Below, in pieces: positions 10,374-64,000 of a DNA stretch of 64,000 nt (positions are counted from its first letter, which is position 1; each line of letters begins with the position of its first letter). Location of the stretch: the IMG/VR virus record IMGVR_UViG_3300034418_008897, positions 1 to 64,000 of that record. One strand, 5' to 3'. The position numbers and the translations under genes are program-made. Under the pieces are notes generated by a model, which ran no database searches, had not been told where the DNA came from, and saw nothing but the letters and a program-made list of their open reading frames with translations. The stretch comes from a virus.

Positions 10374-10679
10374 TTATAGTAATTTACCCCCTTTACGGAA
10401 TACTGGAGTTTCGTAGTTCATACGACCACCGTTTCTCATAGCTGGTTGAGCTTCTTGTGCTCCTCCCATCATTTCTAACAACATATCACAAATAGCTACA
10501 GCAATTTGAGGATCTCTTGTCTCAGCATACTGCATCAACATTCCTTCAATATCTGGTCCTTGTTGTGTTGGAGCTTCAGCCATTTCTGGAGCAGCAGCTT
10601 CTGGAGCCATTTCTCCACCCATTTGAAATTTACCAACTTTATTTTGTGTTCCGTAAACTTTTAAATAATCTTTTGACAT
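10374..10679 (-). CDS. Small (101 aa) internal virion protein carrying three tag copies
   Basis: KFQMGG, AMRNGG and VFRKGGKLL; has its own AT-rich upstream region. Confidence 0.6.
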   Translation of the reverse strand: MSKDYLKVYGTQNKVGKFQMGGEMAPEAAAPEMAEAPTQQGPDIEGMLMQYAETRDPQIAVAICDMLLEMMGGAQEAQPAMRNGGRMNYETPVFRKGGKLL

Positions 10680-36857: not shown

Positions 36858-37478
36858 TTATTTTTTGTATATTAAACTATTTAAAATACCGCCTTTTTTC
36901 CATAATTCAGTACAAGCTAAATGTCTTGCTGTACCTGGTTTCGCAGTACTACATTTATGTCTTGCTTTAAAAGCTTTTCTTTTGGAGTCTACATTATTTA
37001 CATAACGTTTATCTCCTGCATGGACTAGTTTCTTTTTACCATCTATACAGTAAAGCTTCATAATTTTTTTATGCTTACGGGTAGATCTTTTAGTTTGACC
37101 GCATTTCATATCTGATTTTACAGACCCGCCCTTTTTATATAGCAACATTCCTAATTTAGCTTTTGAAACTTTTTTACCCATACCTTTATTTTTCTTTTCG
37201 GATATTTTCTTTTTTAAATTTTTACCTTTAGGCATATTAGGAGTTTTTGAGCTGACTTTTTTACTGGGTCTACAATACTCAGTTTTACCACCTGAACCGC
37301 AATCTTCACCAGAAATTTTATCTTTCCATTTTTCGTCTCCCCATCTTTTTAAATCCGACCCTTTTTTAGTTTTTCTTACATCTCCTTTAGACTTTCTACA
37401 TTTAGCAATAAGTTGACTACGCCTAGCAGAGTTGGGCATTTTAGCAGCAAATTTTTTATAACAAGCATCTTTACTCAT
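36858..37478 (-). CDS. Highly basic Cys-containing protein, two small domains joined by the tag
   Basis: Very Lys-rich; LKRWGDEKW..CG..YCRP and KLVHAGD.RY...AFKARHKC...LAC.ELW domains; MLLYKKGG linker and LWKKGGIL end. Confidence 0.65.
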   Translation of the reverse strand: MSKDACYKKFAAKMPNSARRSQLIAKCRKSKGDVRKTKKGSDLKRWGDEKWKDKISGEDCGSGGKTEYCRPSKKVSSKTPNMPKGKNLKKKISEKKNKGMGKKVSKAKLGMLLYKKGGSVKSDMKCGQTKRSTRKHKKIMKLYCIDGKKKLVHAGDKRYVNNVDSKRKAFKARHKCSTAKPGTARHLACTELWKKGGILNSLIYKK

Positions 37479-46474: not shown

Positions 46475-47125
46475 TTATTCTATTGTTCTATATATAACAT
46501 CTTGTGCTTCATCATTTAAAATCCAGTTACCCACACCTTCTAATTTATAAGCGTAAGGCACTGTGCTTTTTTCTCTAGTTACAGTTTTATTACCATCTTT
46601 ATCTGTAGTAATTACAGTAACATATTTATAAATAGCATCTTTAAACTCTTTTGTTGGAGAGTTTTCTTCAAGTTCTATTTTTGGTTTTAATTCTTTAGAA
46701 GGAGAAATCTCAACAATAGATAAAGCCGCCCTCATTGGCATCTTATCTACTTTAGGCTTTTCTTTTTTAACTTCTTCAATTTTTGGAACAGAAGCTGCAA
46801 CAGTTTTTAAAACTACTTTTTTAGGTTGCTTTATATCTTCAAAACTGCTTATATTAAACGGTTGATTATTTTTAGCTTCTAACCTTTTAATAGCTGGTAC
46901 TATAACAGTAGCCTCATAAGATCTATTTTTTTCAGTATAATCTTGGTATGCTTTAACTTTTTCCTCTTGAGTATTTAAAGTTTTTAATTTAGATTCTAAT
47001 TCTTTAAAATAATTAAAAACTTTTGCGCTATCCGCTTCACTTTCTTTTAAGCCAGTTAAAGCTATGGGGTCTGTTGTGTAATAAACCCCGCTTGTACCAC
47101 TCTGATATTTTTTTAGTAGTGACAT
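46475..47125 (-). CDS. Tagged hypothetical protein (216 aa)
   Basis: Starts MSLLKKYQSG; abuts the portal stop. Confidence 0.6.
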   Translation of the reverse strand: MSLLKKYQSGTSGVYYTTDPIALTGLKESEADSAKVFNYFKELESKLKTLNTQEEKVKAYQDYTEKNRSYEATVIVPAIKRLEAKNNQPFNISSFEDIKQPKKVVLKTVAASVPKIEEVKKEKPKVDKMPMRAALSIVEISPSKELKPKIELEENSPTKEFKDAIYKYVTVITTDKDGNKTVTREKSTVPYAYKLEGVGNWILNDEAQDVIYRTIE

Positions 47126-49495
47126 TTATAAATTATTTTTTATTTCCCTTGCATTACCCGCTACATTTTCTGCATATAACTGCTCTCTTTCTAAACGAAC
47201 TACTTCTTTATCTTTCTCTACTTCAGCTGTAGCTGTTTTTTCATCTAAATCTAATCTTCTTTCGCTGATTTTAATTCGTTCTTCAGATTCTTTTTTACGA
47301 ATCTCCAGATCTTGCATTTTATATTCTCTATCTGATTTTTCAAGTTTTTCTTTTTCTTTTTGGGTTTTTTCTAGCTCTGTTTGCAATTGTTTAGCTTGCT
47401 CAGAAAGTTGCTCCAATTGTTGAGCCATTTGTTGCAGTTGATTATTCTCTTCTTTTTTCTTTTTAATACTTTCTGACAATAATAGATTAGCTTCTGTGAT
47501 AGAGTCAGTCATCATCAATTTCATCAATACCTCGTCTTCTATAGAGCCTTTACCTGCTAATTGAGGCGCAAGAGCGTTCAATTTTTCTAATTTTAAGTTT
47601 TCTTTACTAGAATTTACTAATTGAATATTGAAATCAGTAAACCTAAAGTTTTCTGGAGAAGCATTAAATAAAATGTTTCTATGGCCAACTATATAAGCTC
47701 CTTTCTTACCTTCTTTATAAGTAATTTTAGCTTGGTTTAATAAATCAATCAAAACAAATTTTCTACTATCAAAAACTAATTCAAATAAATCTTTTGTAAT
47801 TAAAGATGTTTGTTTAATACCAGTTTTAACATTTGTGACTGCATCTCTTTGTTCAGCAGCTGCATACATATATCTGTTTATACCTGTAACAATATCAGCT
47901 TGTGCTTGTATAGATTCTAAAACAACATTTAATTGTTGTATAATATTTCCATTTAAAGAACCTCTGAAATCCCCATAATGTTGGAATAAACCAGCTCCTT
48001 CTTCTGTTGGGTCGTATAATTCTAATCCTTGTTTACGGAAAGCTACAAATTTAAGTAATCTTTCCATAAAATCTTGCCCTAATACTTTTGGTATAGCAGC
48101 TAAATTAACACGAGAGCCATCTACACCTGCGTTAGCAATTAAATTATCTCTAAAGAAAGTAATTACATCATAAGAATTTTGTAAGTCTTCTAGAGACAAC
48201 GCTACTGAATATGGCCTAGTATTTCTATCGTTATAACCAACTCCATTTATAGATAAAGTAGTTTTCCAAGGCGCACTTATACTTCTAGGTGGATTTTTAC
48301 TCTTACCTAAATTTAAATAAATGTCCCAACCAATTCTAACTCCTTCATACCTATCTAACCTATAGCCTTTCTTATTAGGTTCGCCGTAACCAGCATCTTT
48401 TCCACCTCTGAGGTCTTTATCTAAAACTTCGCTGTAATATTTGCTCTTTTTTATGGTTTCTACTACTTGATAGCTTTCTTTATCTTCTCCCGCAATTTCT
48501 ACTTCATTGTTCGCTAACCATTCTACATGGTATACAGGTAAAGTATCCCACATAGAATTCAAATGTTGGTTGTAGGTAGTATTCGCAGCTAATTCATAAA
48601 TCCTATCCAACTGCCTTGGGTCCCTAATAACTTGAGCGCCTGATGAATCTGATTTACCGTATAAAATAGTTTTTTGTTCGTCAGTCATTACATGACCCCA
48701 TTTATTTAAAATAGCTGTTCTAGTCATATAAGTCCTGTGAACTACTGCAGTTACATTAGGTTCGTTTCCGTTAGATAAAAACTGAAAGTTTGTATTTTTA
48801 CTAAAAAATACATTTTCAGGTTTACATATTTCTAATTTTGGGTCTTCCCCTTCTCGGTCTATATAAGTTCTATAATAAGCTTCCCCCGTTATTAATAAAT
48901 CTAAAAGATATTGTTTTAGTTTTTGTTTTAAATCTATAGTAGGGTCTTGCTCAAAAAATTTAATTAAAGATTGAGCTGCAATTTCGTATTGAGAAACAAA
49001 ATCACTATTTAATGTTTTATTCAAATTTTCAATGAAGCTTTCTTCATAAGCTGTTTTAGGGCTTTCTTTACCGGCTTTTATTGCTTCTGTTGTATCTTTT
49101 TTAAATTGCTCTAACTTTTTTAATATTTCTTCGCTTTTCTTTTTCATCTTTTGCGCTTCTATATTATTTATAGTTTGAGCGTCATTCATAGAAATGCGAT
49201 AGGTATACTCTTCATCTAAGAATATACCTATTAATACATCTATTTTAGTTTTTACTAGAGGAGTCATTTTTACAGACATAGGAGTTTCTATGCCAAAAAC
49301 TTGCTCTAAATATGCAAATTCTTCTTTATCCCGCACACCATCATATAAATTTCTAGCTTTTCTGATGTGTTCTTTTTCTCTAACTAAAGCAGAAATATAA
49401 AAATCAACGCTTTGACTTAAATAGTCAAATTTTGATTTATCCTCTTCAGATATAGAAACATCTTCAATGTGGTAGTAACGTTGTATAAGACTCAT
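47126..49495 (-). CDS. Portal protein (crAss type)
   Basis: 789 aa; KARNLYDG.RD.EEF, TPLVKTKIDVLIG, DLLITGEAYY, EQRDAVTNV; C-terminal coiled-coil barrel. Confidence 0.88.
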   Translation of the reverse strand: MSLIQRYYHIEDVSISEEDKSKFDYLSQSVDFYISALVREKEHIRKARNLYDGVRDKEEFAYLEQVFGIETPMSVKMTPLVKTKIDVLIGIFLDEEYTYRISMNDAQTINNIEAQKMKKKSEEILKKLEQFKKDTTEAIKAGKESPKTAYEESFIENLNKTLNSDFVSQYEIAAQSLIKFFEQDPTIDLKQKLKQYLLDLLITGEAYYRTYIDREGEDPKLEICKPENVFFSKNTNFQFLSNGNEPNVTAVVHRTYMTRTAILNKWGHVMTDEQKTILYGKSDSSGAQVIRDPRQLDRIYELAANTTYNQHLNSMWDTLPVYHVEWLANNEVEIAGEDKESYQVVETIKKSKYYSEVLDKDLRGGKDAGYGEPNKKGYRLDRYEGVRIGWDIYLNLGKSKNPPRSISAPWKTTLSINGVGYNDRNTRPYSVALSLEDLQNSYDVITFFRDNLIANAGVDGSRVNLAAIPKVLGQDFMERLLKFVAFRKQGLELYDPTEEGAGLFQHYGDFRGSLNGNIIQQLNVVLESIQAQADIVTGINRYMYAAAEQRDAVTNVKTGIKQTSLITKDLFELVFDSRKFVLIDLLNQAKITYKEGKKGAYIVGHRNILFNASPENFRFTDFNIQLVNSSKENLKLEKLNALAPQLAGKGSIEDEVLMKLMMTDSITEANLLLSESIKKKKEENNQLQQMAQQLEQLSEQAKQLQTELEKTQKEKEKLEKSDREYKMQDLEIRKKESEERIKISERRLDLDEKTATAEVEKDKEVVRLEREQLYAENVAGNAREIKNNL

Positions 49496-49501
49496 CTTTT
49501 A

Positions 49502-50089
49502 TTATAATGTATATAAAATATCAAACTGATTAACTGTTTTCAATTTACAATCACTTTCATTTAGTATAAGATTTCCACAAAATGGATCAAAAGCTACAAC
49601 AGTGCCTTTTTTATATTTTTTAGCTTCTGGACCACAAGAAATAACTTCACCTTTTTGAGTTAAAGCTGATCTTGGATCTTCTTTACTATCATCATAAATA
49701 CCGTCTTTTACAAGACCTTCACCTATAATCTTAACTAAAATTCTATCACCTGTTGGTTTTACTGTTTCTTCTGTCATATTTTCAAAATTACTTGTTACTT
49801 TGGCCACTATATCATGACCTCTAATTATCTTACAGTATCCATCTGTAGTTGGAACTCCATAACCTGCAAACTGAGAAAAAATAATATTTTCTCCCTCTTT
49901 CAGTTCAGGACACTGGCTTTCTTCAGTTGCTTTATCTCCTAACTTTAAAGCACTACCGTAATAGTACTCAATATTACTTTTAGTAGCAACTGGACCAGAA
50001 CCAATATAGATTTCTCCATTTAAATTAGGTAATTCTGTTACTTCAGCTAAAACGTTAAACCCTTCTGGTTTAATTGTTAATTTCTCCAT
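49502..50089 (-). CDS. Co-chaperonin with two tandem GroES (Cpn10) domains
   Basis: IKPEGFNVLAE...LKEGENIIFSQFAG...IIRGHDIVAKV and VKPTGDRILVK...GEVISCGP...KKGTVVAF...VNQFDILYTL. Confidence 0.85.
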   Translation of the reverse strand: MEKLTIKPEGFNVLAEVTELPNLNGEIYIGSGPVATKSNIEYYYGSALKLGDKATEESQCPELKEGENIIFSQFAGYGVPTTDGYCKIIRGHDIVAKVTSNFENMTEETVKPTGDRILVKIIGEGLVKDGIYDDSKEDPRSALTQKGEVISCGPEAKKYKKGTVVAFDPFCGNLILNESDCKLKTVNQFDILYTL

Positions 50090-50150: not shown

Positions 50151-52424
50151 TTAATCATACATATATTTAGGGTTTTTAGGGTCTGTCATATCTATCCACC
50201 TAACCCCACCATGTCTATTGAAAGATTGCGCATCATTTCTAATTTGGTTTTTAAAAGCTTTTTCTTCGCTGTTTTGGTTAGGAATAACACCGTATCTTTT
50301 TATTTTTTTACCATTAACATATTCAGAATAGTACCCAAATAATTGCAAACCTTCTGTTGCTTTTTCTGGTGGTTTAGCTTCTCTACCCATAAGATCTTCA
50401 TCAGACAGCTCACATAATCCCATAGCAATAACAAAATCGTATTTTGTTCTGTCTTCTCTATTGTAATCTTGTAATTGCTCTAATAATTCAGGAAACCAAA
50501 TAATATCGTAAAAATCATCTATATAAGCCTTTATTTTTTGGTCCATATGGTCAATTATGGGACCAGCAGCTGTAGTACCTATAAGATTAGTATGTTTGTT
50601 TGGATCGGCATTTTGTAAATTAATAGATGGCCTTTTCTTTAGTAAGTGATAGAAGCCTTGATCTCTAAACCAACTTACAATACCTATTTTAGTGTATTCT
50701 ATATTTACTTCAGCATTAAAATAATAAGCTAATTTTAAAGCATTGTCCCAATCATCTCTTACATTGTCGGATCTTTTGTTATATTTAGCCACATATATAT
50801 TAGAAGTAGTTCTAAAATAACCTTTAGACAAAATCCTTTTCTTTACTAATATTGCTAATTCTGATCCTTTTCTATTATCTTTTGCATAAGATGAATCTGC
50901 TAAACCTTGGTCAATACTATCACAACCAGCAACATATAAATTAGACATAGGTTCTTTTTCGTCGTCCGCCGCGTCTTCTGATAACCAGTGAGGGTGCTCT
51001 AAAATTTCTACATCCCCAACAGGGCTAGGGTTCCAGGTAACACCTATAATTTTACCGTTTTCAGCCCTTTGCCATTTTAAAAATCCTTTACCTGGTTTTG
51101 GGCAATCTGGGTTATGAGAAATATTTATACGTTGAGTGGCTATTTTATCTTGGTTGAATATATTAGTACCTCTTCTAGTAAATACTTCTTTAATATTCAT
51201 AGGGTATTCTTGCAGTAAACCAGAATAAGTTTCAGGTTCATTTTTAGCTGCTTCTCTTTCTTTATTTACTTGCTCTGTAGCAAGTTCTACATCAGGGCAA
51301 CCAGTTACTTCCCAAGTACCAGCTCTTTTAATATGAGTTGGGCAAAAGAAACCTGATTCTATTTCAAAGTCGTTAGTTTCTAAAATTTCATGGGCCCTAG
51401 GATTACAAAATATACCTTCAGCTTCGTCATTCTCTATAGTACCACCAGTACCAGAATAAAGCACTTGACATTTTTTAATACTACCCATTACATACCATGA
51501 ACCACGACTTTCTCTTTTACAAGCCCCTAAAGACCCTTTTTGGTGGGAAGGCGGGAAAGCTGCAAACTCTTCTATTAATTGCTTAGTTGGACGCTTACCC
51601 CTTGTTTTACCGGCGTTTTTACCGTAGATGATTTTTTCATATTTACTTAAATGACCTCTATCTTCTGTAGTACCGTCGGGTAATTCTACCCTTTCTCCTG
51701 CATATTTCATATCAGAAGAGTCTGTAATAAGTTTTAATTTTAAAGGTCTATGTAAAGCTTCTATAGCATTTAACCCGGATTCTATTTTATTCCAAGCCTC
51801 GTTTGTTGTTTCTTCATTGGTAGAAGATACCAAGATATGGCTTTCAACCATAAGTCTAAACTCACGGTCTAATATACAGTTGTACATGAAAGATTTACCT
51901 ACACCACGACCACCCATAATGGCCGCATCTTTATTGTTTAAATAAGCTTTCCAACAATAATCAAAGAAGTATCTATCTATATTACTGTATTGAGGGTGAG
52001 AGGTTGTAAAGTCTTCTGTTGGTTTTCCATCTATATAAATAGGAACAGGAAAAACAAAAATATTTAACCAGTAAACAAAAAATGGATTATAATATTCACC
52101 ATCAATAAATACTCCATCGTAGCAGTAATCTATTAAAGGCTTATACCATTCTTCCATATCTAAGCTGTCTGGGTGAAAACTAGGTATATTTCTCCAAGCT
52201 GTTAATTCTTTAGGCAAAGGCCTGTACACTAAATAATCAGTTAATTTTATTTCTTCATGGCCGGTAGGAACACCAGTTAATCTTTTAGGGGCATTAGTAA
52301 CTTCAAATTCGCCATTCCATATTCTACCGTGCTCATCCTTTCTAAGAAAATCTAAGTCAAAAGGGTCATACTCATTTTTTACTCCAAAAAGTTCTGGTAT
52401 TTTATCTACATTAACTGTTTTCAT
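50151..52424 (-). CDS. terL: Terminase large subunit
   Basis: Walker A GGRGVGKS, Walker B LIEEFA, GTGG, QEYP, nuclease YVAGCDSIDQG and YDFVIAMGL. Confidence 0.92.
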   Translation of the reverse strand: MKTVNVDKIPELFGVKNEYDPFDLDFLRKDEHGRIWNGEFEVTNAPKRLTGVPTGHEEIKLTDYLVYRPLPKELTAWRNIPSFHPDSLDMEEWYKPLIDYCYDGVFIDGEYYNPFFVYWLNIFVFPVPIYIDGKPTEDFTTSHPQYSNIDRYFFDYCWKAYLNNKDAAIMGGRGVGKSFMYNCILDREFRLMVESHILVSSTNEETTNEAWNKIESGLNAIEALHRPLKLKLITDSSDMKYAGERVELPDGTTEDRGHLSKYEKIIYGKNAGKTRGKRPTKQLIEEFAAFPPSHQKGSLGACKRESRGSWYVMGSIKKCQVLYSGTGGTIENDEAEGIFCNPRAHEILETNDFEIESGFFCPTHIKRAGTWEVTGCPDVELATEQVNKEREAAKNEPETYSGLLQEYPMNIKEVFTRRGTNIFNQDKIATQRINISHNPDCPKPGKGFLKWQRAENGKIIGVTWNPSPVGDVEILEHPHWLSEDAADDEKEPMSNLYVAGCDSIDQGLADSSYAKDNRKGSELAILVKKRILSKGYFRTTSNIYVAKYNKRSDNVRDDWDNALKLAYYFNAEVNIEYTKIGIVSWFRDQGFYHLLKKRPSINLQNADPNKHTNLIGTTAAGPIIDHMDQKIKAYIDDFYDIIWFPELLEQLQDYNREDRTKYDFVIAMGLCELSDEDLMGREAKPPEKATEGLQLFGYYSEYVNGKKIKRYGVIPNQNSEEKAFKNQIRNDAQSFNRHGGVRWIDMTDPKNPKYMYD

Positions 52425-53491: not shown

Positions 53492-55228
53492 TTAATTTTG
53501 TTTTTGATAGATAATTTTACCGTTTTTTATTTGTTTTATTATATTACCTTTCGAGTCAAAAAAATCTATTACTCTAGAATCTGCCCCTAAAGTATTATCT
53601 AAAACTTCTTGCTCTCTAGATACAGGGTTTGTTCTTCTTGAAATATAGGGCTCAAATCCTTCTTCTATAGTAGTCTTTATAAATCTATCTTTATAATTAG
53701 AGTTAGTTTCTATGCTTTTTTTCATTAAGTCTCTTGCTGATTTTTCCCTTAATCTAGTTGCTTCTTTTAATTGATTAAACTCATCTAAATTTCTAGGCAT
53801 ACCAAGGCGAACAGAGTTAAAACTTTGAGGTTTTTCAACAGAAAGAAGAGTTGGTTGTTTTGCTTTTTTAATTGGGTATTTTAAAGCCATTACAGCAACC
53901 GGGTCTATCATTACATCAGCGATGGTATTAGTAACAGGATTATTTATTCCTTTGCTTTGTAAATAAGAACTTGGAGTTAAATGTTTGTTATTTGTAAACG
54001 CAGACATCATCATGTTTTGAGGAATGCTAAACATATCTAATAAAGTAGTATTATTAGATAATTCTATTTTTTCTGTACCAGGTTTATTATTTCTTAAATT
54101 ATCTTCGTAAATTTTATTTTTAACATCTTCTTCTTGTGCAGGTATAGCATTTTTATTTAACTCTGCTGCACGTTTACCATCTGGATCTTTAATTGGAACA
54201 TATCCGTTTGTTTTTCCAGGAATATTAATCATCCAACCAAATGCACCTTTCTGGTACCTTACACCTGGTCTACTTGGGTAGGTGTAGGTAACTGGACTTG
54301 TGCCATTTTGGTATTTTTTAATGTATAAAATTCCGCCTTTGCGAGCCATCATTATTTTATTTTTATTATTTGTATTAGCAATAGTATTAAAAATTTCTAA
54401 TAAATCATTGTCATTAAATCTCTGCTCTAATTGTTCAAGTTGATTTCTCCCATTTATACCTTTCATTTTAGCTTTTATTTTTTCTAAAATTTCCGGGGTC
54501 ATTGTTTCTGTATAAGGATCGAAAATGTTATTATCTTTTGCAAATTGCAATATTGCATCTTTTCTAGCACTTATTTCTTCTAATCTACCTAAATAATTTA
54601 ATTCCTTCAAGTTATTAATAATATGTTGCTTGCCTTGGTCGGTTTTTAAAAAATCTTCATAAGGCATCGACATAAAGAAATTATTTTCTTGTTCATATTT
54701 TAATTTAGCGTTTTGTGCTAATTTTGTGTCTTTAAAAAGCTCATATGCTTTATAAGGATTATTGTAATCAAATATAATTGCTTTTGCTTCAGGCATTTTT
54801 TCTGGCGTTGCAATTTGCCACTTTTGGTAATCATATTTTGGGAATGTATGGCCAGTTTCATTACTATTAGACATATGTCTATATTCATGAGTTTTAACAT
54901 AAGGATTATAATCTGGCATATTTGTAAACAAAGTAACATTTCTTTTACCTTCATAATAATTAGGGCTAGGATTAGCTTCCCCTAATACATTTGATAAAAT
55001 AGGAGGTTCATTTGTTTCAAAATCATTTAAATTTTTTAACCTTTCAGTTATTATTTCATCTGCTTTCAGTTGTAATTCTTCTTTATTTAAATTTGGAAAA
55101 TCTTTACTTAAAGAATTCAGTAATAATTCTTTGTGTTTAGGTGAATTAAACCAACCTTCTAAATATTCTTTTGAGTCGCTTGGGCTAACTAAAGTATTAC
55201 CTTTTTGATATTTTTTTAATAATGCCAT
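53492..55228 (-). CDS. Tagged two-module protein: zincin-like HExxH metallopeptidase + second module
   Basis: Starts MALLKKYQKG; THEYRH and a later EEISAR; internal MARKGGILYIKKYQNG junction. Confidence 0.7.
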   Translation of the reverse strand: MALLKKYQKGNTLVSPSDSKEYLEGWFNSPKHKELLLNSLSKDFPNLNKEELQLKADEIITERLKNLNDFETNEPPILSNVLGEANPSPNYYEGKRNVTLFTNMPDYNPYVKTHEYRHMSNSNETGHTFPKYDYQKWQIATPEKMPEAKAIIFDYNNPYKAYELFKDTKLAQNAKLKYEQENNFFMSMPYEDFLKTDQGKQHIINNLKELNYLGRLEEISARKDAILQFAKDNNIFDPYTETMTPEILEKIKAKMKGINGRNQLEQLEQRFNDNDLLEIFNTIANTNNKNKIMMARKGGILYIKKYQNGTSPVTYTYPSRPGVRYQKGAFGWMINIPGKTNGYVPIKDPDGKRAAELNKNAIPAQEEDVKNKIYEDNLRNNKPGTEKIELSNNTTLLDMFSIPQNMMMSAFTNNKHLTPSSYLQSKGINNPVTNTIADVMIDPVAVMALKYPIKKAKQPTLLSVEKPQSFNSVRLGMPRNLDEFNQLKEATRLREKSARDLMKKSIETNSNYKDRFIKTTIEEGFEPYISRRTNPVSREQEVLDNTLGADSRVIDFFDSKGNIIKQIKNGKIIYQKQN

Positions 55229-55438: not shown

Positions 55439-57626
55439 GGTCTTTTTTTACTCTGTCCATATGTCTTTTTGCCATATAGCCTAGAGGAATACTTGTTGCG
55501 CCAAGCAAACCAGCAGCCCCCTTTATAAACTTATTATTTGAAGCTTTATCCCAGTCTCTAAGCACATCCATTTGCTTTGTATTAGCTGCATTTTTAGTAC
55601 CCAACATAGTTAATTTAGCTGTTGTTTTTTGATTATCTCCTAAAGTACCTGGAGAAAATTCTTCAATAGTTTCAATAAGCTTATTGCCTTTATGATCAAA
55701 AAATTCACCTGAATCGTTGTAATATATTCTATTTTTCAAATCAAAAGGTTTACCACCTGTTAAAGAAGAAACTTCAAAATCTCTGACTTTATTAGGTAAG
55801 AATTTCATCTTTTTTAATGGTTGTAAATCCCATGTATCTGTAAAATCAATAAATTTTCTACCTTGCTCATCTACACCTTTTGTAATCCAACCATTACCAT
55901 GCACACCACCAAAATTTAATTCTTTTTCAATTTCCATAGTACCAAATGATTTTTTAGGATTATCTATTATTTTTTGCAGTTTATTCTTCTCTAATTTAAA
56001 ATCATTCAGCGCTAATGTATTATCTGCGTTTTTAGAGAAAGTATTAAACTCAGGTTCTAATCCGTTGTATAATCTCCAAGAATCAAATCTATTTTTAGTA
56101 GCGTAAGTTTTTGGCTTAAACTTCAAAGCTTTAGGTGTTATTACTTCTAATGGGGCTCCAGCTACTGTAAATAAATCATAACCTATAGGAGTTATAGATC
56201 TATTAACAATTTTACCTAACAAATTATTTTTAGCTTGCTTTGTATAGGTTTTCATTATTTCTTTTTGTCTCTCAGGACTAAATCTAAAACCAAAACCTTC
56301 ATATTTATTTGTAAATTGATTCCATTTAGCATCATTATATTTTCTTTTTAAACCTTTTAAAAAATCACCTTTGGGGGCAACAATATCTTCTCCAAGATTA
56401 ATTAAATCTTGTGGAGCTACATGAGAAGCTACTCCATGAATAAAATCTACCTTATTTACATTTATATTTTTAAGTTCTGGATTTAATTTTACTAAAGATT
56501 CATATACAACATTTAATTCAACTGGCTCTACAAGTCCTGCTTGAGATCTTCTAGCAAATTCATTTAATCTATTAACATCAACTCCTTCTGGTAAAACATA
56601 GTCATGCCCAAATTGAGGATTTACAAGTTTTGATTTTTTAATAGAAGGTTCAAATTTTTTAGTAACAAAATTATAATAGGAATCAGAATTCTTTTTAATA
56701 GCATCCACTGCTCTATAATGTACAGGATCTATACCTACTTGAGTCTTAGCAGATTGTAAATTATATTTTGGAAATTTATATTCAAAATTAGGTGAGCCTG
56801 GTAGTTGTTTAGTAAAATTATTAGCTAATAAACCCCTAGCATCATCTGCATATTTACCTAATACTTTACCGCCTAATCTTACCACATCAGGAGCCTTGTA
56901 TAATAATCCTGCAGGAGCTGTAACTATACCCGGCAAAGAAGCTGCATTTAAAGTATTTGGTGTGTATCTACCTGATAAAGCATCTCCTAATGTAGTAGGT
57001 TGATCGGCATTAGTAGCATATTTCATAACAAATGAACCTGGTATATCTGCAAAAGAAAGAGCATCAGCAGCATTTCCTAATTTTTGCATTACACCTTTAG
57101 GGTAGTAATATTTCGCTTCTTCAGCTGGAGTTAATCCTTTTATATCAGGTGTAAAAGTCGGTCCTTGCTTTCCTGTTAAATTTAAGAAGCTGTTAGCTGC
57201 GGATACTGCTCCACCTTTGGTTCTTGCCCACAATGAAGGCTCTATATATTTAGCATATTTAGAGTTAGGCATTGCTTTAGAAAGAATCTTAGCGTTAACT
57301 AAGTTATTCATTATAGACTCTCTATCTGTAAGATCTATATTATTTTCTTTAGCATACTGCTCTATAACATAATTATTTCTATCATAATCATATCGATTGT
57401 GTATCCTTTGTTCAGCTTGCTCAGGAAAATTTCTTTCGTTTACATTAAATAAATTTTGTAGTCCTTTATTACCTTTGTTTAAGTAATTATCTTTTTCATT
57501 TATAAGGTAATCACGATAAGGATTTTTAGAATTATAATCATTATAATACCTAGTTAAAGGAGTTATAGATGTTTCCTTTAACGTCTTTCCTTTTTGGTAT
57601 TTTCCTATTTTATTATATAACATCAT
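55410..57626 (-). CDS. Tagged multidomain protein (738 aa), unknown C-terminal domain
   Basis: Starts MMLYNKIGKYQKG; central Ala/Gly hydrophobic stretch; globular C-terminal domain (DTWDLQP, GGKPF); hydrophobic tail. Confidence 0.7.
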   Translation of the reverse strand: MMLYNKIGKYQKGKTLKETSITPLTRYYNDYNSKNPYRDYLINEKDNYLNKGNKGLQNLFNVNERNFPEQAEQRIHNRYDYDRNNYVIEQYAKENNIDLTDRESIMNNLVNAKILSKAMPNSKYAKYIEPSLWARTKGGAVSAANSFLNLTGKQGPTFTPDIKGLTPAEEAKYYYPKGVMQKLGNAADALSFADIPGSFVMKYATNADQPTTLGDALSGRYTPNTLNAASLPGIVTAPAGLLYKAPDVVRLGGKVLGKYADDARGLLANNFTKQLPGSPNFEYKFPKYNLQSAKTQVGIDPVHYRAVDAIKKNSDSYYNFVTKKFEPSIKKSKLVNPQFGHDYVLPEGVDVNRLNEFARRSQAGLVEPVELNVVYESLVKLNPELKNINVNKVDFIHGVASHVAPQDLINLGEDIVAPKGDFLKGLKRKYNDAKWNQFTNKYEGFGFRFSPERQKEIMKTYTKQAKNNLLGKIVNRSITPIGYDLFTVAGAPLEVITPKALKFKPKTYATKNRFDSWRLYNGLEPEFNTFSKNADNTLALNDFKLEKNKLQKIIDNPKKSFGTMEIEKELNFGGVHGNGWITKGVDEQGRKFIDFTDTWDLQPLKKMKFLPNKVRDFEVSSLTGGKPFDLKNRIYYNDSGEFFDHKGNKLIETIEEFSPGTLGDNQKTTAKLTMLGTKNAANTKQMDVLRDWDKASNNKFIKGAAGLLGATSIPLGYMAKRHMDRVKKDLENYNKGNK

Positions 57627-57628
57627 TT

Positions 57629-60142
57629 TTAATTTTGTTTTTTATTCCAAGGGTTATAAAGTAAAGATCCTAAACCTATTGGAGCTAATGCCTTATATAT
57701 ATTAGGGTTAGTCATGTCAAACATTCCATTATTACCTATTAAAGATTTAAGTCTATTGTTACCTTTAAAGAATATTACATCATCCCCTATATCTTCTCCT
57801 GGTTTTAACTTTAAAGAATTATCATAATTATCTACAACATTTTTAGCTGTAAAAGAATCGAACCCTTGTTTTTTATATCTTTCTGCTAATTTATTAGTAG
57901 TAAGAGGCGAAGTTTCACGAGCATTAGGATCTAAAAAATCATTTTTTTGGATTGTCATATCTTTTTTATAAGGGGCAGATTCAGGTAAAGATTTTAAATA
58001 TTTTTCTGCTGCTTGTTTTGATCTAAATGTATTTCCTTCTGGAGACAGCATATTACCAAAAGCATCATATTGCATACCTTCTTTATTATTAGAACCTACG
58101 ACATAACCACTTTTCTTACCTATCCAACTATTTCCTTTATAATCTACAGATTTATTTTTACCTAAATTTGCTCCTAATTCTAGCACCTTACCTTTATCCC
58201 CAGCATAAGTTTTAGCTATGTTTTTGTTAGTAGTCGTAAAAATTAGGTCAGGGTATAAATTTCCACTAGTTAATCTTTCTGCTTTACTTAAATCAAATTC
58301 TGTTAAATCTCTAGCTGGAGTTCCGTGGTATAGTACATTTTTATACATATTTTCAGCTTGTTTTTCCCCCCCTGCAAATCTTGTTAAATTTTTAGATTTC
58401 ATTTGGACAAACTGTTCTGGACTACCGTTGAATTTAGTACCGTCACTATATTTCATCCATGTTCCATCAGCTTTAGCTTGTTGCTCAATAGCATTATACT
58501 CTTGCATTAAAGCTTTATTTTCTGGTATTTCTTTATTCCATTTACCCCAATCTATTTCAGATTTAAAATCTTGAGTAGGTAATAAATCAGATAAGTATTT
58601 ATTTGTATTGATTACTTTAGATTTATCTGCTTTTGCTACTACTTCATCTATACTGTTTTTCCATTCTGTTATATCGTATTTAGCACCGCGTTTTTCTATT
58701 CTTTTTACAAACTCATCTTTTGGTATATTTATAATTTTATCAAAAGAGTCTAAATTATTCCTTAATAAGTTTGTATTTGATGTAAACAATACTTGCCCTT
58801 TACTTTTAGCTTCTTTTTTAACTTCATCAAATAAAGACTGCATCATTTGATTATATTCTTTATTCCATACTTCATTACCTCCGTTCTTTACTTGATATGT
58901 AGAAATATTATACTTTTTTGCAATATCATTTACTGAATTATTTATAACATCTGCATAGTCATCATCTAAAGATAAAAACCTATTGTCACCGGCTTGCTTT
59001 AAATAACTTTTACCTATAGTTGGATGACCAAATATAATTTCATCTGTGTTATTTATTACCGGTTCAAAAACACTTCCTGTAGCTTGCCCTACATCTTGAG
59101 CTTTTGCTCCTACAACTGCTTTATTATAAGCTTTTCTAACAATTGGATTATATTTTGCACTAGCTGGGTTTAATTGAGGCACTAACACAGATCTGAAATC
59201 GTTAGCTACACTAGTTGGAGTGGAACTAATCCTAGGAATTATTTTATTACCTATAATATTGTTTAATTTAGAAGAGTTGCTTAACCTCATAGTTTCCAAA
59301 GCAGCGCTTTCTCCCATGTTCATTAACCTACCAGAACGACCAATTAATTTAGTACCTGGTATAAGATCTAAAGCCGTAAATGCCGTTGAAGTTAAAGCAT
59401 TTTGCCAATCCTCCATTTTACCGCTTTTTATTGCTTTTCTTATGTCCTCTTCAGTGTAAAGAGCATCATTACCAGCATTAATTAAAGCAGTAGTTGGGTG
59501 TAAATATGAAGCTGCGTTTAAACCTTTTAAAACAGTGTTATTATCAAAAACGGGATCTGAAAATCCAGGCGATCTTTCCATAGCACTATAATTCATAGGC
59601 ATATTGAAAGGCCCAGGTTTTAAAAAATAAGCTGTTGCTACTAGAGGGTTTCTAATTATGTTTCCAGCTTTATCTGCCCAAGTATATTCAGGAGCCGATT
59701 GTATTGTCCCAGGATCTTTCGGATATACCATTGCTGGTATATAACTATCTATTTTGTTTGTATCTAATAGGATTTTAGCTTTATCTTCTTCAGACAACCA
59801 ATTAGCATTTTTAATTTTATCTACTACTATAGATCTTTCAGCAGCTCTTCTTTTTGAACCCTCTTCAACTATATTAGCAGCTGTATTAGCTATAAGTAAA
59901 TTTTTTGGTTGAGTTGATTCAGCAACTTCTACTCTAGGTAAAGAATTAAAATTAGCTGTATTAAAATTAGAATAAGGTATAGCGTTCTTATTTAATTCTG
60001 CTGTTCTTTGTTCTACATTTCCAGCAGTTAATGGTAAATATTTACCATTAATTTCTTTAAACCATTTATCTCCTTCTTTCTTATAATTGTGGTTATTATA
60101 TCTATAATACCCGCCGTCTTGATATTTTTTTAATAATGCCAT
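57629..60142 (-). CDS. Tagged polyvalent protein: P-loop kinase + ADP-ribosyltransferase-like (ART-PolyVal type) domain
   Basis: Starts MALLKKYQDGG; IIFGHPTIGKS; VLYHGT...FD...IFTT.NK.IAKTYA...GFDS...KSLIGNNGMFD..NPNIY. Confidence 0.72.
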   Translation of the reverse strand: MALLKKYQDGGYYRYNNHNYKKEGDKWFKEINGKYLPLTAGNVEQRTAELNKNAIPYSNFNTANFNSLPRVEVAESTQPKNLLIANTAANIVEEGSKRRAAERSIVVDKIKNANWLSEEDKAKILLDTNKIDSYIPAMVYPKDPGTIQSAPEYTWADKAGNIIRNPLVATAYFLKPGPFNMPMNYSAMERSPGFSDPVFDNNTVLKGLNAASYLHPTTALINAGNDALYTEEDIRKAIKSGKMEDWQNALTSTAFTALDLIPGTKLIGRSGRLMNMGESAALETMRLSNSSKLNNIIGNKIIPRISSTPTSVANDFRSVLVPQLNPASAKYNPIVRKAYNKAVVGAKAQDVGQATGSVFEPVINNTDEIIFGHPTIGKSYLKQAGDNRFLSLDDDYADVINNSVNDIAKKYNISTYQVKNGGNEVWNKEYNQMMQSLFDEVKKEAKSKGQVLFTSNTNLLRNNLDSFDKIINIPKDEFVKRIEKRGAKYDITEWKNSIDEVVAKADKSKVINTNKYLSDLLPTQDFKSEIDWGKWNKEIPENKALMQEYNAIEQQAKADGTWMKYSDGTKFNGSPEQFVQMKSKNLTRFAGGEKQAENMYKNVLYHGTPARDLTEFDLSKAERLTSGNLYPDLIFTTTNKNIAKTYAGDKGKVLELGANLGKNKSVDYKGNSWIGKKSGYVVGSNNKEGMQYDAFGNMLSPEGNTFRSKQAAEKYLKSLPESAPYKKDMTIQKNDFLDPNARETSPLTTNKLAERYKKQGFDSFTAKNVVDNYDNSLKLKPGEDIGDDVIFFKGNNRLKSLIGNNGMFDMTNPNIYKALAPIGLGSLLYNPWNKKQN

Positions 60143-60147
60143 AATAC

Positions 60148-61953
60148 TTATTTTGCAAAGTTTTTAGCAAAATTAGCCTTCTTGACCATCTTACTACTAT
60201 ATTTATTCTTATTAGCTAAAATATGGCTAGCTGCTTCTTGAACATCCATGCCCATTTTTGTAGCTTGCGCTTTAAATGTACCTTTCTTTTCAGGATCTAT
60301 TTTTATAGTATTTCCTTTTTTATATAAAAGACCACCTTTTTTAAAAATTGCAGTTTGAGGTATACTCTTACCTGCTGTTGATCTTATATAATTATCTAAA
60401 TTATACATGGTTTTATTTACATACTTATTTTTTGTGGCATCACCACGCAATAGTACACCTGGACTACGCCAAGCAGTTGCCCATCTTTCTTCAGGGCTTA
60501 ATTCTACATTACCCTCTGCTTGCCTATAAACTTCACCGTTTTTTACACTGTATAAATTGCCTTGATTGGGGTAGTATTTTTCTACTTCTTTTCTTAATAA
60601 AGCAGTTTTATATTGATCATCAACGTCATAATTTAAGAATACTCTTTTACCATTAGGTAGCATATAATAACCATCAAATGTTTCATCTGGTTTTTGAAAT
60701 GAACTACCTCTTAAATCCCTGGAAAAGAATTGCTTAGGTGAAGACCACATACCAGGAGCTTCTTTACTTTTAATAACCCTAGGATTTTCATTACCCCTAT
60801 TATATAAGCTCTTAGAAGATTTATCCAATTGGCTCAAATATATCATAGAAGCTAAACCAGCTTTATAAGGATCTTTTAAATCAGATCTAGATCTAATACC
60901 ATATTTATCCGCTATACTCGCTAACCTAGGGTCGTTAAAAATATTATCTGGGTTTATTTGAGTCATACCTATACTACTACCTACTAATTCTGAAGCATAC
61001 CCTTTGATTCCCTTCAAAGATTTACCGCCTTTGGTTTCGGTCATAGCAGTTGCGGTTAAAAAGTTAACCATTTGTTTGTATTTATCTGGGTCTAAATTTA
61101 AATCTTTAGCTAAATTATTTGCGTGTTGAACTAAAGCTAAAGTAAAATTACCTAAATCATGAGTTAAATATTTTTCCCCCTCACTACTATTATTTACTGC
61201 TTTTTCAAAACCAACTGATTTTTTAATTTTATCATAAGGATTTTGCACTTCAAAATCGTAGGATTTATTTTGCTCATCAAAAAACTTTTGAAAAAATTCT
61301 CTATTTAAATTTAAATTTTCTTCTGGTGCTATAACTGTTTGCAAATTATATTTTTTCCACACTTCTCTAGCTTCTGATAAAGTATATAATTTTTTATCAT
61401 AAGCATCCATTAATATAGATTCCCCAGTATCTTTATCCCATCCTACTTTGATCATAGTATGGTTAGAATTTTTATAGCCTTTGGCTTTAGAATAACCATA
61501 TGGGTGCATATCTTGATCAGGTCCCCATAAATAAAAAGTACCTACAGGGGTATCTAAATCAAAATTTTCATTTCTATTTTCATCTAAAATATTGTAAAAA
61601 GTCTTACCACTATCTGCGTATACCCCTGCTAAATCCCAACTGTCTACAGATCCCTTGTAATCACCTTTTAAATAAGGGTATTTTTCTATTTGTTCTGGTG
61701 TTGGTTGAGTAGATGTTGTCAATAAACCTCTAGCGTTTTCTATATCACCTATAGTTTTTACTCCAGGAATATAACCTAAACCTTTAGTATATAACAAACA
61801 AGCGTCCCCTTTACAATTACCCAGAGTACCTTCTAACATATTATCTCTAAAAAAGTCAGAATTAGCTCTGTCTTCTGCAGTATAAATTACTTTATCTATG
61901 CGAGTATTAAATCCTTTACCTGGTTGAAATTTTTTTACTTTGTTATATAGCAT
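60148..61953 (-). CDS. Tagged dual cell-wall hydrolase (papain-like Cys/His domain + lysozyme/SLT-like domain) with basic C-terminal module
   Basis: Starts MLYNKVKKFQPG; GDACLLY...DSWDL...NHTMI; ATAMTETKGG...SIGMTQI...DLKDPYKAGLASMIYL; IFKKGGLLYKKG precedes the last module. Confidence 0.6.
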   Translation of the reverse strand: MLYNKVKKFQPGKGFNTRIDKVIYTAEDRANSDFFRDNMLEGTLGNCKGDACLLYTKGLGYIPGVKTIGDIENARGLLTTSTQPTPEQIEKYPYLKGDYKGSVDSWDLAGVYADSGKTFYNILDENRNENFDLDTPVGTFYLWGPDQDMHPYGYSKAKGYKNSNHTMIKVGWDKDTGESILMDAYDKKLYTLSEAREVWKKYNLQTVIAPEENLNLNREFFQKFFDEQNKSYDFEVQNPYDKIKKSVGFEKAVNNSSEGEKYLTHDLGNFTLALVQHANNLAKDLNLDPDKYKQMVNFLTATAMTETKGGKSLKGIKGYASELVGSSIGMTQINPDNIFNDPRLASIADKYGIRSRSDLKDPYKAGLASMIYLSQLDKSSKSLYNRGNENPRVIKSKEAPGMWSSPKQFFSRDLRGSSFQKPDETFDGYYMLPNGKRVFLNYDVDDQYKTALLRKEVEKYYPNQGNLYSVKNGEVYRQAEGNVELSPEERWATAWRSPGVLLRGDATKNKYVNKTMYNLDNYIRSTAGKSIPQTAIFKKGGLLYKKGNTIKIDPEKKGTFKAQATKMGMDVQEAASHILANKNKYSSKMVKKANFAKNFAK

Positions 61954-61968
61954 ATCTTTTTTTTTGTT

Positions 61969-62862
61969 TTATTTTTTATACAATAAACCGCCTTTTTTGA
62001 ATTTGTAAGTTTTAACAGCTTTAGCATATTGTCTTTCAAACTCAGGGTTAGATTTATATAAAATTTTATTTACATAATCTCTAGTTTCTCTAGGTAGCTC
62101 GTTCATCCACTCTTTCCCTTTATAAATATCTACGCCTTTTTTCTTTTGTTCATTCAAATATTCTAAAAAATTACCTCTTCCATGGTTGTAAGCTGCTAAA
62201 GTTTTAGCTAACCTTATCTCATTAGATTGATTAGGTTTATTAATGAAAGATGCATTATACAAATCAGTCATGTACCATTTCTGAATCTTAGCACTAACTT
62301 CAGGATCATATAAACTATCTGTAGATTTTATTATTCCTGCTTTTACAGCATCCCCCTTTACATCAGGCATTATTTGCGCTAAGCCAGCAGCACCAGCGGG
62401 AGATACTGATTTAGGGTTAAAGCTAGATTCTTTAAATTGTTGTCTTAATAAAAAATCATTAGTGAATATTTCAGAATTTACTTTAGGCTCTGCTTTAGGC
62501 TCAGGTTTAGCATCTGATACAAGTTTAGGCTCAGAAGAATCTTTAATATATCTTTCTGGTTTTTCTGGTTCACCAAAGAAAGACTTACCATAAGCAGGTA
62601 CATCTGTTCTTAGTTGTGTAGATGGTAATCTAAGCTCATCATTTAACTTTGATTTGCGAGATCCATCGGGGTCTTTTATAGCTACATAGTAACCATTAGT
62701 ACTTTCATTCTTTATAAACCAATCATCAAAAGCATCTTTCATATAAGTAGATCCTGGTCTTTCAGGGTGTACATATATTTTTTTATCGAAAATATCTGCT
62801 TCATTTATAGTTCTACCTGGAGCTTTAGGTTTTGGTTTTTTATCGTTGTACAATAAAGACAT
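61969..62862 (-). CDS. Tagged lytic transglycosylase (SLT domain)
   Basis: ATG at 62862 (MSLLYN) preferred; KESSFNPKSVSPAGAAGLAQIMP, LAAYNHG, LPRETRDYVNKI; ends FKKGGLLYKK. Confidence 0.9.
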   Translation of the reverse strand: MSLLYNDKKPKPKAPGRTINEADIFDKKIYVHPERPGSTYMKDAFDDWFIKNESTNGYYVAIKDPDGSRKSKLNDELRLPSTQLRTDVPAYGKSFFGEPEKPERYIKDSSEPKLVSDAKPEPKAEPKVNSEIFTNDFLLRQQFKESSFNPKSVSPAGAAGLAQIMPDVKGDAVKAGIIKSTDSLYDPEVSAKIQKWYMTDLYNASFINKPNQSNEIRLAKTLAAYNHGRGNFLEYLNEQKKKGVDIYKGKEWMNELPRETRDYVNKILYKSNPEFERQYAKAVKTYKFKKGGLLYKK

Positions 62863-62870
62863 AATTAAAA

Positions 62871-63125
62871 TCAATTCATTAAACTAAATTTTTGTCTGTA
62901 AGCTAATTTCTTACTAACTACCTCATTATCAGCAATTTCTCTTACAGAACAAAATATAATATTTTCTTCTCCATACTTATCATACATATTTTGTATAGCT
63001 TCTACAGGATGTTTTCCTTCTCTTAAAAGCTTAAGATGTACAGAAACACTAGCATTAAAATCTTGAGTAGTATTAATGTAGATGTACTCATCTTGTATAC
63101 TAGTTATGTAGTAAAGAGTTGCCAT
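62871..63125 (-). CDS. Degenerate GIY-YIG-like protein
   Basis: TLYYIT...YIYINTT...HLKLLREGKH....IQ.MYDKYGEENIIF. Confidence 0.6.
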   Translation of the reverse strand: MATLYYITSIQDEYIYINTTQDFNASVSVHLKLLREGKHPVEAIQNMYDKYGEENIIFCSVREIADNEVVSKKLAYRQKFSLMN

Positions 63126-63205: not shown

Positions 63206-63952
63206 TTAAAATCTATATTTTAAACCTGCTCTGATATTATAATTAGAGTCGTATTTACCTTTATCATATCTACCTTCTAAATTACCTGATAATTTAGGCG
63301 TGAAATATTTTTCGGCATTAATATTAGCGCCTACTCTGTAGTTTTCATTCTTACCTAGACCTTTTTCAGCGGAAGCAGAAACCCCTAAATAACCATTCTT
63401 CAAAGGCACTCCTTTATTAACATTATAGCCTAAAGAAAAGCTAGGGCGGCTTATACCTTTATATGTCACAAATTCAGGAAATCCGGGTGCACTAGGTATT
63501 TTATCCATAGCGTAGTTAGCCTCAGCCTTGACCCCTAGGGACCCTAAATTTTTAGGTAAGTCTTTGTATAAACTAGACTCGAACCTATTAAACTCTTCTA
63601 TCTGCGGATATTGTTCTATTATTTTTTCACCATTTTTATCTACATCTTCATAAATTCTCATTCTCTTTGCCTTCTCAAGGCTAGCCATACCATCAACTCT
63701 AAAACCTTTAGGCAAAGCAGCACCAGCACCACCCATTTTCATATAGTCATTGGGAGCTTCTAATCTTTCTTCATGGCTCCACCCATAAGCAGTAGGATTC
63801 CATCTACCAACAGGAGCTGATAAATTTATCCTAGGTTCTTCTTTTTCTACTAAAGGGCTGGTATTCATAAACTTATGTTTAAGGTCTAAATCCTTTATAT
63901 AGGAATTTATAGTACCTTCTGTTTGATATTTTTTAGTATATAGTAAAGACAT
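63206..63952 (-). CDS. Tagged protein with outer-membrane beta-barrel-like C-terminal half
   Basis: Starts MSLLYTKKYQTEG; amphipathic strands; ends YNIRAGLKYRF. Confidence 0.6.
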   Translation of the reverse strand: MSLLYTKKYQTEGTINSYIKDLDLKHKFMNTSPLVEKEEPRINLSAPVGRWNPTAYGWSHEERLEAPNDYMKMGGAGAALPKGFRVDGMASLEKAKRMRIYEDVDKNGEKIIEQYPQIEEFNRFESSLYKDLPKNLGSLGVKAEANYAMDKIPSAPGFPEFVTYKGISRPSFSLGYNVNKGVPLKNGYLGVSASAEKGLGKNENYRVGANINAEKYFTPKLSGNLEGRYDKGKYDSNYNIRAGLKYRF

Positions 63953-64000
63953 AATTATTTTTTATTATATAATATTCCTCCTTTGTTAAACTTATAACTA

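Follow-up and report, generated by a model that had tools for sequence, protein, structure and literature searches.

How can one short peptide open a protein, close its neighbour and stand in the middle of a third one? This question is raised by a stretch of phage DNA of 64,000 nucleotides, hereafter the window (bases 1-64000 of the 80,524-bp IMG/VR record IMGVR_UViG_3300034418_008897, a metagenomic record of an uncultured virus, which is linear, about 65% complete by estimate and has 31% G+C), in which all the large open reading frames (ORFs) lie on the minus strand. One of its genes, of the cargo type, encodes a protein of 578 amino acids (aa), w578 (53492-55228, -), made of two modules: its HMMER matches form two groups, which end or begin at about residues 300-305. 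The modules are joined by the peptide MARKGGILYIKKYQNG (residues 294-309; 54302-54349, -), and similar peptides are found at the ends of other proteins of the window. We find that this motif is a genuine seam at which genes are fused and split, since all three internal junctions of the window have relatives with split genes. As to what the peptide is kept for, we favour a recognition handle which doubles as the seam, a reading to which we give an even chance of being right. The whole analysis draws on sequence and on one shallow structure model.

A core and its two flanks

The peptide is built around a hydrophobic-basic core, [I/L]-L-Y-x-K-K or L-L-K-K. On the side of the upstream protein the core is preceded by a bulky residue, K/R, K and G-G, while on the side of the downstream protein it is followed by Y/F-Q-x-G(G). 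An N-terminus consists of the core and the right flank, a C-terminus of the left flank and the core, and an internal seam has all three, which in w578 are MARKGG, ILYIKK and YQNG. A preliminary description of the window had taken the N- and C-terminal tags as halves of one motif, and this holds with the precision that the halves overlap on the core [IL]LY.KK, of which the w578 seam has one copy. It had also placed a boundary in this seam between MARKGG and ILYIKKYQNG: the residues are as observed, but the boundary after GG is an interpretation. The two other seams are in the 601-aa protein (residues 536-549; 60307-60348, -), where IFKKGG-LLYKK-GNT is read in IFKKGGLLYKKGNT, and in the 206-aa protein (ORF 36858-37478, -), where KLG-MLLYKK-GGS stands at residues 108-119 (37122-37157, -). 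The ORF translations place the seams of the 578- and 601-aa proteins exactly where they had been described, and the one reported for the 206-aa protein is present as well.

Clear N-terminal tags, of the form M-[S/A/L/M]-(L)L(Y)-x-K-K-[Y/F]-Q-x-G or very near to it, open nine proteins (MSLLYVQKFQIGG, MSLLYVEKFQKG, MSLLYTKKYQTEG, MSLLYNDKK, MLYNKVKKFQPG, MALLKKYQDGG, MMLYNKIGKYQKG, MALLKKYQKG and MSLLKKYQSG), which carry differing domains, and weaker forms open three more. The C-terminal tag [F/W]-[K/N]-K-G-G-[I/L]-L-...-K-K closes three proteins (FNKGGILYNKK, FKKGGLLYKK and WKKGGILNSLIYKK, each directly before the stop codon), and weaker forms are found in three others. The protein w578 itself starts with MALLKKYQKG (55199-55228, -) and ends with GKIIYQKQN (53495-53521, -), which by resemblance only may be a degenerate C-terminal tag.

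We compared the 58 non-nested minus-strand ORFs (21,504 aa) with 1000 within-protein shuffles of each. The right flank, K[YF]Q.[GE], was seen 11 times, where the shuffles gave 0.74 on average and 5 at most, and 10 of the 11 matches fall within the first 25 residues; the left flank, [KRN][KRN]GG[LIK]L, was seen 7 times (4 in the last 12 residues) against 0.09, and the core pattern 9 times against 0.31. None of the 1000 shuffles reached any of the observed motif totals. The composite pattern GG[LIMV][LIMV]Y.{2,5}[YF]Q.G has one match in the six frames of the 80.5-kb record, namely the w578 seam. The copies of the tag use different synonymous codons (TCT, AGT, TCA and TCG for Ser; TTA, CTA and TTG for Leu) with the residues kept; therefore the tag is conserved at the level of the protein, and conservation of the DNA was rejected as the cause of the tags.

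The N half of w578 is likely a zincin-like metallopeptidase. In this module (about residues 17-284; 54377-55180, -), HEYRH at residues 114-118 (54875-54889) and a glutamate helix, EEISAR, at residues 217-222 (54563-54580) align with HE..H and with P-T-E-T-R-A-R of the homologues, that is, with an HExxH motif and its downstream Glu. A structural scan of w578 with VIA-align against 48,161 chains gave weak matches, the best at Z 4.3. Most rows matched one long helix (residues 477-529). Every row that covered the N half (about residues 1-300) was a gluzincin, with Z of 3.8-4.2 (neprilysin, ECE-1, PepO, Zmp1, tricorn F3, aminopeptidase N and DPP III), and we take these rows as backing for the HExxH reading and for nothing more. 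For w578, no match was found in Pfam or PHROG, nor did Foldseek return any PDB entry at E <= 0.001; the profile of alignment A1 against PDB sequences gave one row, at chance level, and tblastn of w578 and of its 1315-aa relative P0008 against the phage collection gave no match.

The second module opens with a small beta domain, found by sequence matches and by the strands of the AlphaFold model (residues 313-365, VTYTYPSRPG...AELNKNAIP; 54134-54292, -). This domain is 54% identical to the 297-aa protein; with the 837-aa protein, at residues 20-56 of the latter, it shares 45% identity over 40 columns (E 4e-4). In both these proteins it comes right after the N-terminal tag. What follows the w578 seam hence resembles, by its sequence, the way in which free tagged proteins of this genome begin. 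A search with the domain gave 85 matches in 67 proteins. In the AlphaFold model (23-row alignment, mean pLDDT 67), pLDDT is below 50 at residues 1-16, the N-terminal tag included, and at residues 285-310, while it is 81-94 at residues 220-280 and 83-92 at residues 311-370 (83-92 for the strands of the beta domain). The seam is thus predicted to be unstructured, between the peptidase module and the second module.

Split and fused genes in relatives

A full HMMER search with w578 gave 147 other representatives, whose matched stretches fall apart at query residues 299-314. The search for related loci with w578 found no close orthologue. We gathered 17 related loci, one by way of the 298-aa match P0033 and 16 by way of the terminase (68-88% identity), and compared the tagged proteins of the window with their ORFs by BLASTP. 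Residues 3-115 of the 206-aa protein correspond to a gene of 131 aa (L017:866-1261, 71% identity) which ends with AKTGGILYKS, and residues 106-199 to the adjacent gene of 100 aa (L017:1258-1560, 83%), which starts with MMRSTKGVILYKKGG. Residues 542-598 of the 601-aa protein are found as a free 66-aa gene starting with MLLYKKGG (L007:2784-2984, 68%), and the same C-terminal module is joined to other partners in L003 and L008. Residues 1-302 of w578 correspond to the free 298-aa gene P0033, which has a tag at both ends (it starts with MSLLRKYQKGD and ends with SKKGGLLYKP). On the other side of the seam, residues 303-361 match the start of a 248-aa protein (L007:3639-4385, MAILRKYQTGG..., 47%) and residues 301-361 the start of a 236-aa protein (L009:4179-4889), both of which open with the tag, while P0002 carries the C half of w578 (71% identity, residues 302-449) after a different partner and the joint ...GYVVEE-YQDGG. 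Relatives thus encode a flanking module separately at the motif for three of the three internal junctions, which bears out the earlier proposal of a linker through which payload genes are joined and parted.

When all 298 ORFs of the window and the 17 loci were compared with one another, 14 internal matches to the core pattern appeared, eight of which have a GG or LG flank. A free-standing homologue with a terminus at the motif exists for six of these eight (six of the 14 in all), and the remaining two are fused homologues of each other. The six internal cores with no glycine flank have no free-standing counterpart; for one of the six, the position is within a domain. One can also notice that in three fused seams a Met stands directly before the core (GG-M-LLYKK-GG), as in the free N-termini.

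At real gene boundaries a complete core is found in both genes. The 474-aa protein ends with FNKGGILYNKK (63958-63990, -) and, 2 nt on, the 248-aa protein starts with MSLLYTKKYQTEG (63914-63952, -), which reads MSLLYTKKYQ. The 297-aa protein, which has an SLT domain (Pfam PF01464), ends with FKKGGLLYKK (61972-62001, -), and the 601-aa protein starts six codons on with MLYNKVKKFQPG (61918-61953, -). Two complete cores are also present at the boundaries between the genes of 131 and 100 aa in L017, of 87 and 66 aa in L007, and of 298 and 296 aa in L003. As every real boundary has the core in both genes, a seam with one core is the expected remnant of a deletion between neighbouring cores. For the same reason we rejected a stop codon lost by sequencing error as the origin of the 578-aa ORF: its seam has one core, where a real boundary has two.

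Between the 297- and 601-aa genes (61954-61971, -), the TAA stop codon and five codons, which include a run of nine A, are followed by the in-frame start of the 601-aa gene, and if the stop were read through, the resulting fused seam would have two cores. Recoding was considered and rejected: the A-runs of Lys-Lys-Gly are out of phase for a -1 slippery heptamer, and this pair of genes is the only one in frame across its stop codon.

A version of the motif with Trp for Leu (GG-WLDKY-xxGG) is kept among representatives which are less than 50% identical. Among the 147 distant representatives, 24 end in a core of the type G(G)-W-[L/M]-x-x-Y, for instance GGWLNKYK, eight start with a Trp-type core, for instance MANWLDKYEQGG (two further matches to the start pattern were dropped as starts of the small domain), and eight have GG-core-[Y/F]-[Q/E]-x-G inside the chain. 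A syntenic gene present in three contigs of about 100-118 kb (35% G+C) starts with MANWLDKYEQGG and ends with GGWLNKYK, and its product is of 193, 479 or 1135 aa (L023:10001-10582, L021:10001-11440 and L034:10001-13408, respectively). The longer versions hold internal GGWLDK copies, and by its sequence the gene varies in length as if modules had been inserted between two constant tags.

After the peptidase module, G-G is found within 26 residues in 38 of 60 matches, with Ala at position GG-3 in 25 and Lys at GG-2 in 22 of these 38; nine of the 38 proteins end within 10 residues past GG. Among the matches with no GG, 15 continue and seven end within 12 residues. Before the small domain, G-G is found within 12 residues in 58 of 85 matches, with position GG-3 taken by Y 22 times, by A 10 times, by M 9 times and by F 8 times. 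From these sequences, the w578 seam appears to be the local dialect of a widespread joint made of bulky-x-x-G-G and a hydrophobic core. A second recurrent peptide of joints or ends, E-L-T-x-x-E-I-x-x-Y-x-x-x-G-Y-x-V-E-E, closes 32 of the 147 distant relatives and is also found inside chains; it is acidic, in contrast to the basic LLY.KK core. Recurrent N-termini are also seen among the distant relatives (P0002-P0148), namely MKKTP in 16 proteins and MYNKK or MYNKR in 14.

The tagged genes and their surroundings

The tagged genes form an array upstream of the terminase gene (50151-52424), with products of 245, 474, 248, 84, 297, 601, 837, 738, about 51-61 and 578 aa. The matches of the terminase are restricted to crAss-like phages (21-35% identity), a 471-aa ORF has a major-head match in PHROG (the capsid protein gene is at 41757-43172), and at its left end the window cuts through an open ORF longer than 2290 aa; by these sequence matches, therefore, the phage is a distant crassvirus.

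Besides the tags already located, the array contains the core-only N-terminal tag of the 297-aa protein (MSLLYNDKK; 62836-62862, -), the N-terminal tag of the 837-aa protein (MALLKKYQDGG; 60110-60142, -), whose C-terminus, GSLLYNPWNKKQN (57632-57670, -), is tag-like by resemblance, and that of the 738-aa protein (MMLYNKIGKYQKG; 57588-57626, -). The module of about 52 aa which follows the seam of the 601-aa protein (60148-60306, -) belongs to phrog_20603, and its relatives are 68%, 62% and 61% identical. Outside the array, the 216-aa protein, whose gene comes directly after the portal gene (47126-49495), starts with MSLLKKYQSG (47096-47125, -), and the 206-aa protein ends with WKKGGILNSLIYKK (36861-36902, -). 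An element like the right flank, INKFQTGG, is found near the N-terminus of a 696-aa protein (8918-8941, -) and can be compared with NIFDTGG of gp45 of phage crAss001; a 101-aa protein has both VGKFQMGG (residues 15-22) and, at its C-terminus, FRKGGKLL (10377-10637, -).

A 519-aa protein (12272-13831, -) has a Gly/Ala-rich hydrophobic stretch and then five repeats of bulky-K-K/R-G-G (13001-13015, 12683-12697, 12623-12637, 12572-12586 and 12455-12469), a layout reminiscent of the C-terminal part of tape measures and also of the N half of crAss001 gp45. Within the array, the 84-aa gene (62871-63125, -) is untagged; it seems to be kept at the same place in relatives (L003:3456-3710 and L008:1269-1526), with N- and C-terminal residues which are similar by eye. 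Between the terminase and portal genes, a 195-aa ORF (49502-50089, -) matches a GroES co-chaperonin PHROG with its residues 109-194 and looks, by eye, like a tandem GroES-like duplication. In the related locus L003 (1-9944), the tagged array contains at least four HExxH peptidase modules (in proteins of 298, 296, 402 and 616 aa), and such peptidases therefore seem strongly over-represented among tagged genes; an ORF of at least 211 aa next to this array has H-E-S-T-H.

A handle, a cleavage site or a scar

In the mechanism that we favour, neighbouring cargo genes share the core at the end of one and the start of the next, and a deletion between the two copies would produce an in-frame fusion, from which the 578-aa gene would have arisen. 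Conversely, a duplication plus a stop and a start would split a gene at the core, and neither module would be harmed. Selection would keep the tag as the handle by which cargo modules are recognised, most likely for docking to the portal or to the particle interior during loading. The glycines would act as hinges, and the tag could therefore work at either end of a chain or inside it. Cutting would not be required; if it took place, it would be expected 2-3 residues before GG.

Docking is suggested by analogy with gp45 of crAss001 (cargo protein C1), a protein carried in the particle and detected by mass spectrometry, of which cryo-electron microscopy resolved residues 214-245, a helix in the tail barrel, and residues 425-552, on the portal wing (in the accessible part of Bayfield et al. 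2023, PMC10172136). We find in gp45 four joints of the bulky-x-x-G-G kind: NIFDTGG (15-21), SAYGG (206-210), AFGG-WLN-TQGG (425-435) and FAYGG (559-563). SAYGG comes just before the tail-barrel helix and FAYGG just past the portal-bound domain, which itself opens with a W-type core. From these positions and the modelled ranges it follows that both resolved pieces of gp45 begin at such a joint. The accessible part of PMC10172136 mentions neither cleavage, proteolysis nor a signal for crAss001, and does not mention the motif.

Several points weigh against this handle. Among the 14 window proteins compared with gp45 and gp46 by BLASTP, the best match joins residues 369-419 of gp45, a short module after IAKDGG, to residues 543-598 of the 601-aa protein (37.5% identity over 56 columns, E 0.076), so that homology to gp45 is marginal. 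The word cargo rests on gene position, enzyme types and analogy, and is probable only. A pure loading handle fails to explain the internal copy which fused proteins have beside their N-terminal one. The precedent of T5, described below, is a cleavage site rather than a docking site. The direction, fusion or fission, is read from an unrooted comparison. The motif patterns were written after inspection of the data, which somewhat inflates the ratios to the shuffles, although the effect is still very large. Finally, the 23-row alignment behind the AlphaFold model is shallow, and a low pLDDT is not a proof of disorder. Besides docking, then, both the cargo status of these proteins and fusion by deletion between cores are inferred steps of the mechanism.

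The strongest rival, to which we give a real but clearly less than even chance, is maturation cleavage: the seam and the terminal tags would be cut during assembly or after injection, which would release the modules, so that fused and split genes would yield the same products. The cutting enzyme might come from the host or from the phage, in the latter case perhaps as the adjacent zincin-like peptidase itself, and the cut would, by analogy, lie before G-G and not after it. The analogy is with the tape measure pb2 of phage T5, whose cleavage has been placed after R1127, with a hydrophobic stretch on one side and a muralytic peptidase motif on the other (in the accessible part of Linares et al. 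2023, PMC10038345). In the T5 record the cut site reads R / AEGG-MMY-PGVS-YQMG, so that the cut falls two residues before the GG of a near-identical composite. The composite pattern which singles out the w578 seam in its own record matches T5 (49 kb, six frames) at the pb2 cut site only, and matches none of 20,000 shuffles of pb2; this match is however post hoc and a single case. Similarly, gpH of lambda loses about 14 kDa from a glycine-rich C-terminal region, and FATGGF and YATGGY are found near its C-terminus, but both the cut site and the catalyst are stated to be unknown (PMC12617516). The frequent and neutral-looking fusion and fission also fits equal end products, and the G-G which follows the peptidase module in 38 of 60 matches, with its Ala and Lys, gives an A-K-x-G-G tail compatible with autoproteolytic release, though it proves nothing. 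Autoprocessing, as well as delivery with DNA, has been predicted for polyvalent proteins, strings of unrelated effector domains with a zincin-like metallopeptidase hub (Iyer et al. 2017, PMC5512222, in its accessible part, where linkers are not discussed).

On the other side, the modelled chain of gp45, residues 425-552, spans the G-G-W step. A cut directly after GG, at the boundary drawn in the preliminary description, finds no support in these two precedents. In the 80.5-kb record, incomplete as it is, neither S78 (PF04586) nor C48 peptidases were found, nor C39 (PF03412; phage record only), for which the control matched 7 of 14 genomes; S77 (PF03420) had no match either, which is uninformative, as its control matched 0 of 14 control genomes. 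Nor does PHROGs assign a protease to any gene of the stretch from portal to capsid. Moreover, the mere removal of 10-residue N-terminal and 5-7-residue C-terminal tags would leave the conservation of the core unexplained, unless the core also targets. Handle and cleavage can, by analogy, both be true, since in T4 the capsid targeting sequence first serves for targeting and is afterwards taken off.

A neutral fusion scar, or a DNA recombination linker, in which the peptide would have no function of its own and the conserved gene-end DNA would promote cassette exchange, seems unlikely to us. The cores at adjacent gene ends are indeed AT-rich direct repeats of about 15 nt, which could favour deletions, and modules are extensively shuffled. 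Yet the codons differ while the residues are kept, every split gene has a complete core, distant phages keep the motif with Trp for Leu, and 10 of the 11 right-flank matches lie close to a protein start. The peptide is under selection, and the scar of the preliminary description is not supported. We also think it quite improbable that the seam is a nested gene start, from which the second module would also be made alone. An A-rich stretch precedes ATG ATG GCT (Met codons 292-293) before the w578 seam, as at the true starts of this phage; the 206-aa seam, like two seams found in relatives, has a Met directly before its core, and the homologues often have Met at the hydrophobic position ahead of A-K-x-G-G; but this position merely favours hydrophobic residues (M, I, V, Y), and the 601-aa seam has no Met.

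Double-glycine leaders are short, stand at the N-terminus of small exported peptides and end in G-G. That the G-G of the window marks a leader of this kind, cut by an exporter with a C39 peptidase domain, can be dismissed as next to impossible: apart from the presence of G-G everything speaks against the processing site once proposed, namely the absence of a C39 domain from the 80.5-kb record, the bulky-K-K before GG, the position of G-G (at C-termini and inside proteins of 206-601 aa, and at about residues 10-13 of N-terminally tagged proteins of 216-837 aa), the size of the proteins with the motif (200-840 aa) and the nature of these proteins, which are phage proteins made in the cytoplasm.

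We now come back to the recognition handle and compare it with known systems. The T4 capsid targeting sequence, about 10 residues long, is shared by the N-termini of packaged and injected proteins which are otherwise unrelated; it suffices for loading, the prohead protease gp21 cuts it off at L/I-x-E, and Alt has propeptides at both ends (in the accessible part of PMC9026906). The tag of the window resembles it as an N-terminal peptide of about 10 residues shared by proteins of differing domains (nine clear tags). Unlike the N-terminal-only sequence of T4, it is also found at C-termini and inside chains, and it has no Glu at the expected place. Like polyvalent proteins, w578 combines an HExxH peptidase module with a second module, and homologous modules occur in proteins of up to 2989 aa. 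Here, however, the modules are mostly separate tagged genes, and the paper, in its accessible part, treats domains and gives no conserved junction peptide. As for gp45, it is one long chain, where the modules of the window are spread over many genes, and its termini lack the LLY.KK core of the tagged proteins.

The likeness to T5 pb2 lies in the composite: GG, two hydrophobic residues, a Tyr, a spacer of 2-5 residues and Y-Q-x-G follow each other at both sites, and in both cases the site parts an enzymatic end (muralytic peptidase in pb2) from the remainder of the protein, which in T5 is ejected. The systems differ as wholes, since T5 is a siphovirus and pb2 a tail-lumen ruler with one site, whereas the window has a family of tagged proteins, and w578, which belongs to a crAss-like phage, is not a tape measure: its gene bears a peptidase and lies upstream of the terminase. 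It is tempting, though we hold it rather doubtful, to think that one short code marks the joints and ends of the proteins which tailed phages eject ahead of their DNA, crassvirus cargo as well as siphovirus tape measures (T5 pb2 and perhaps lambda gpH). This code would consist of a bulky residue, two residues, G-G and a hydrophobic or aromatic core, often closed by Y/F-Q/E-x-G-G, and it would be read by a protease, possibly of the host, or by the portal or tail lumen. If it were true, fusion and fission at the code would be neutral, the patchwork of polyvalent cargo proteins would be explained, and one would have a handle on the decades-old question of gpH and pb2 cutting.

Crassviruses, which count among the most abundant phages known, have megadaltons of cargo protein; to our knowledge, neither a signal for loading nor one for processing has so far been described in them, and our text search, which covered neither subscription journals nor supplements, found no phage paper describing tag peptides. 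A tag independent of position would provide a sequence rule for predicting cargo genes, and would explain how these genes can be fused and split undamaged. What is new here is the LLY.KK core at all three positions, the direct pairs of split and fused genes, and the composite match to the T5 site. It is the resemblance to the pb2 cut site which links the cargo of a podovirus to the unsolved maturation of tape measures.

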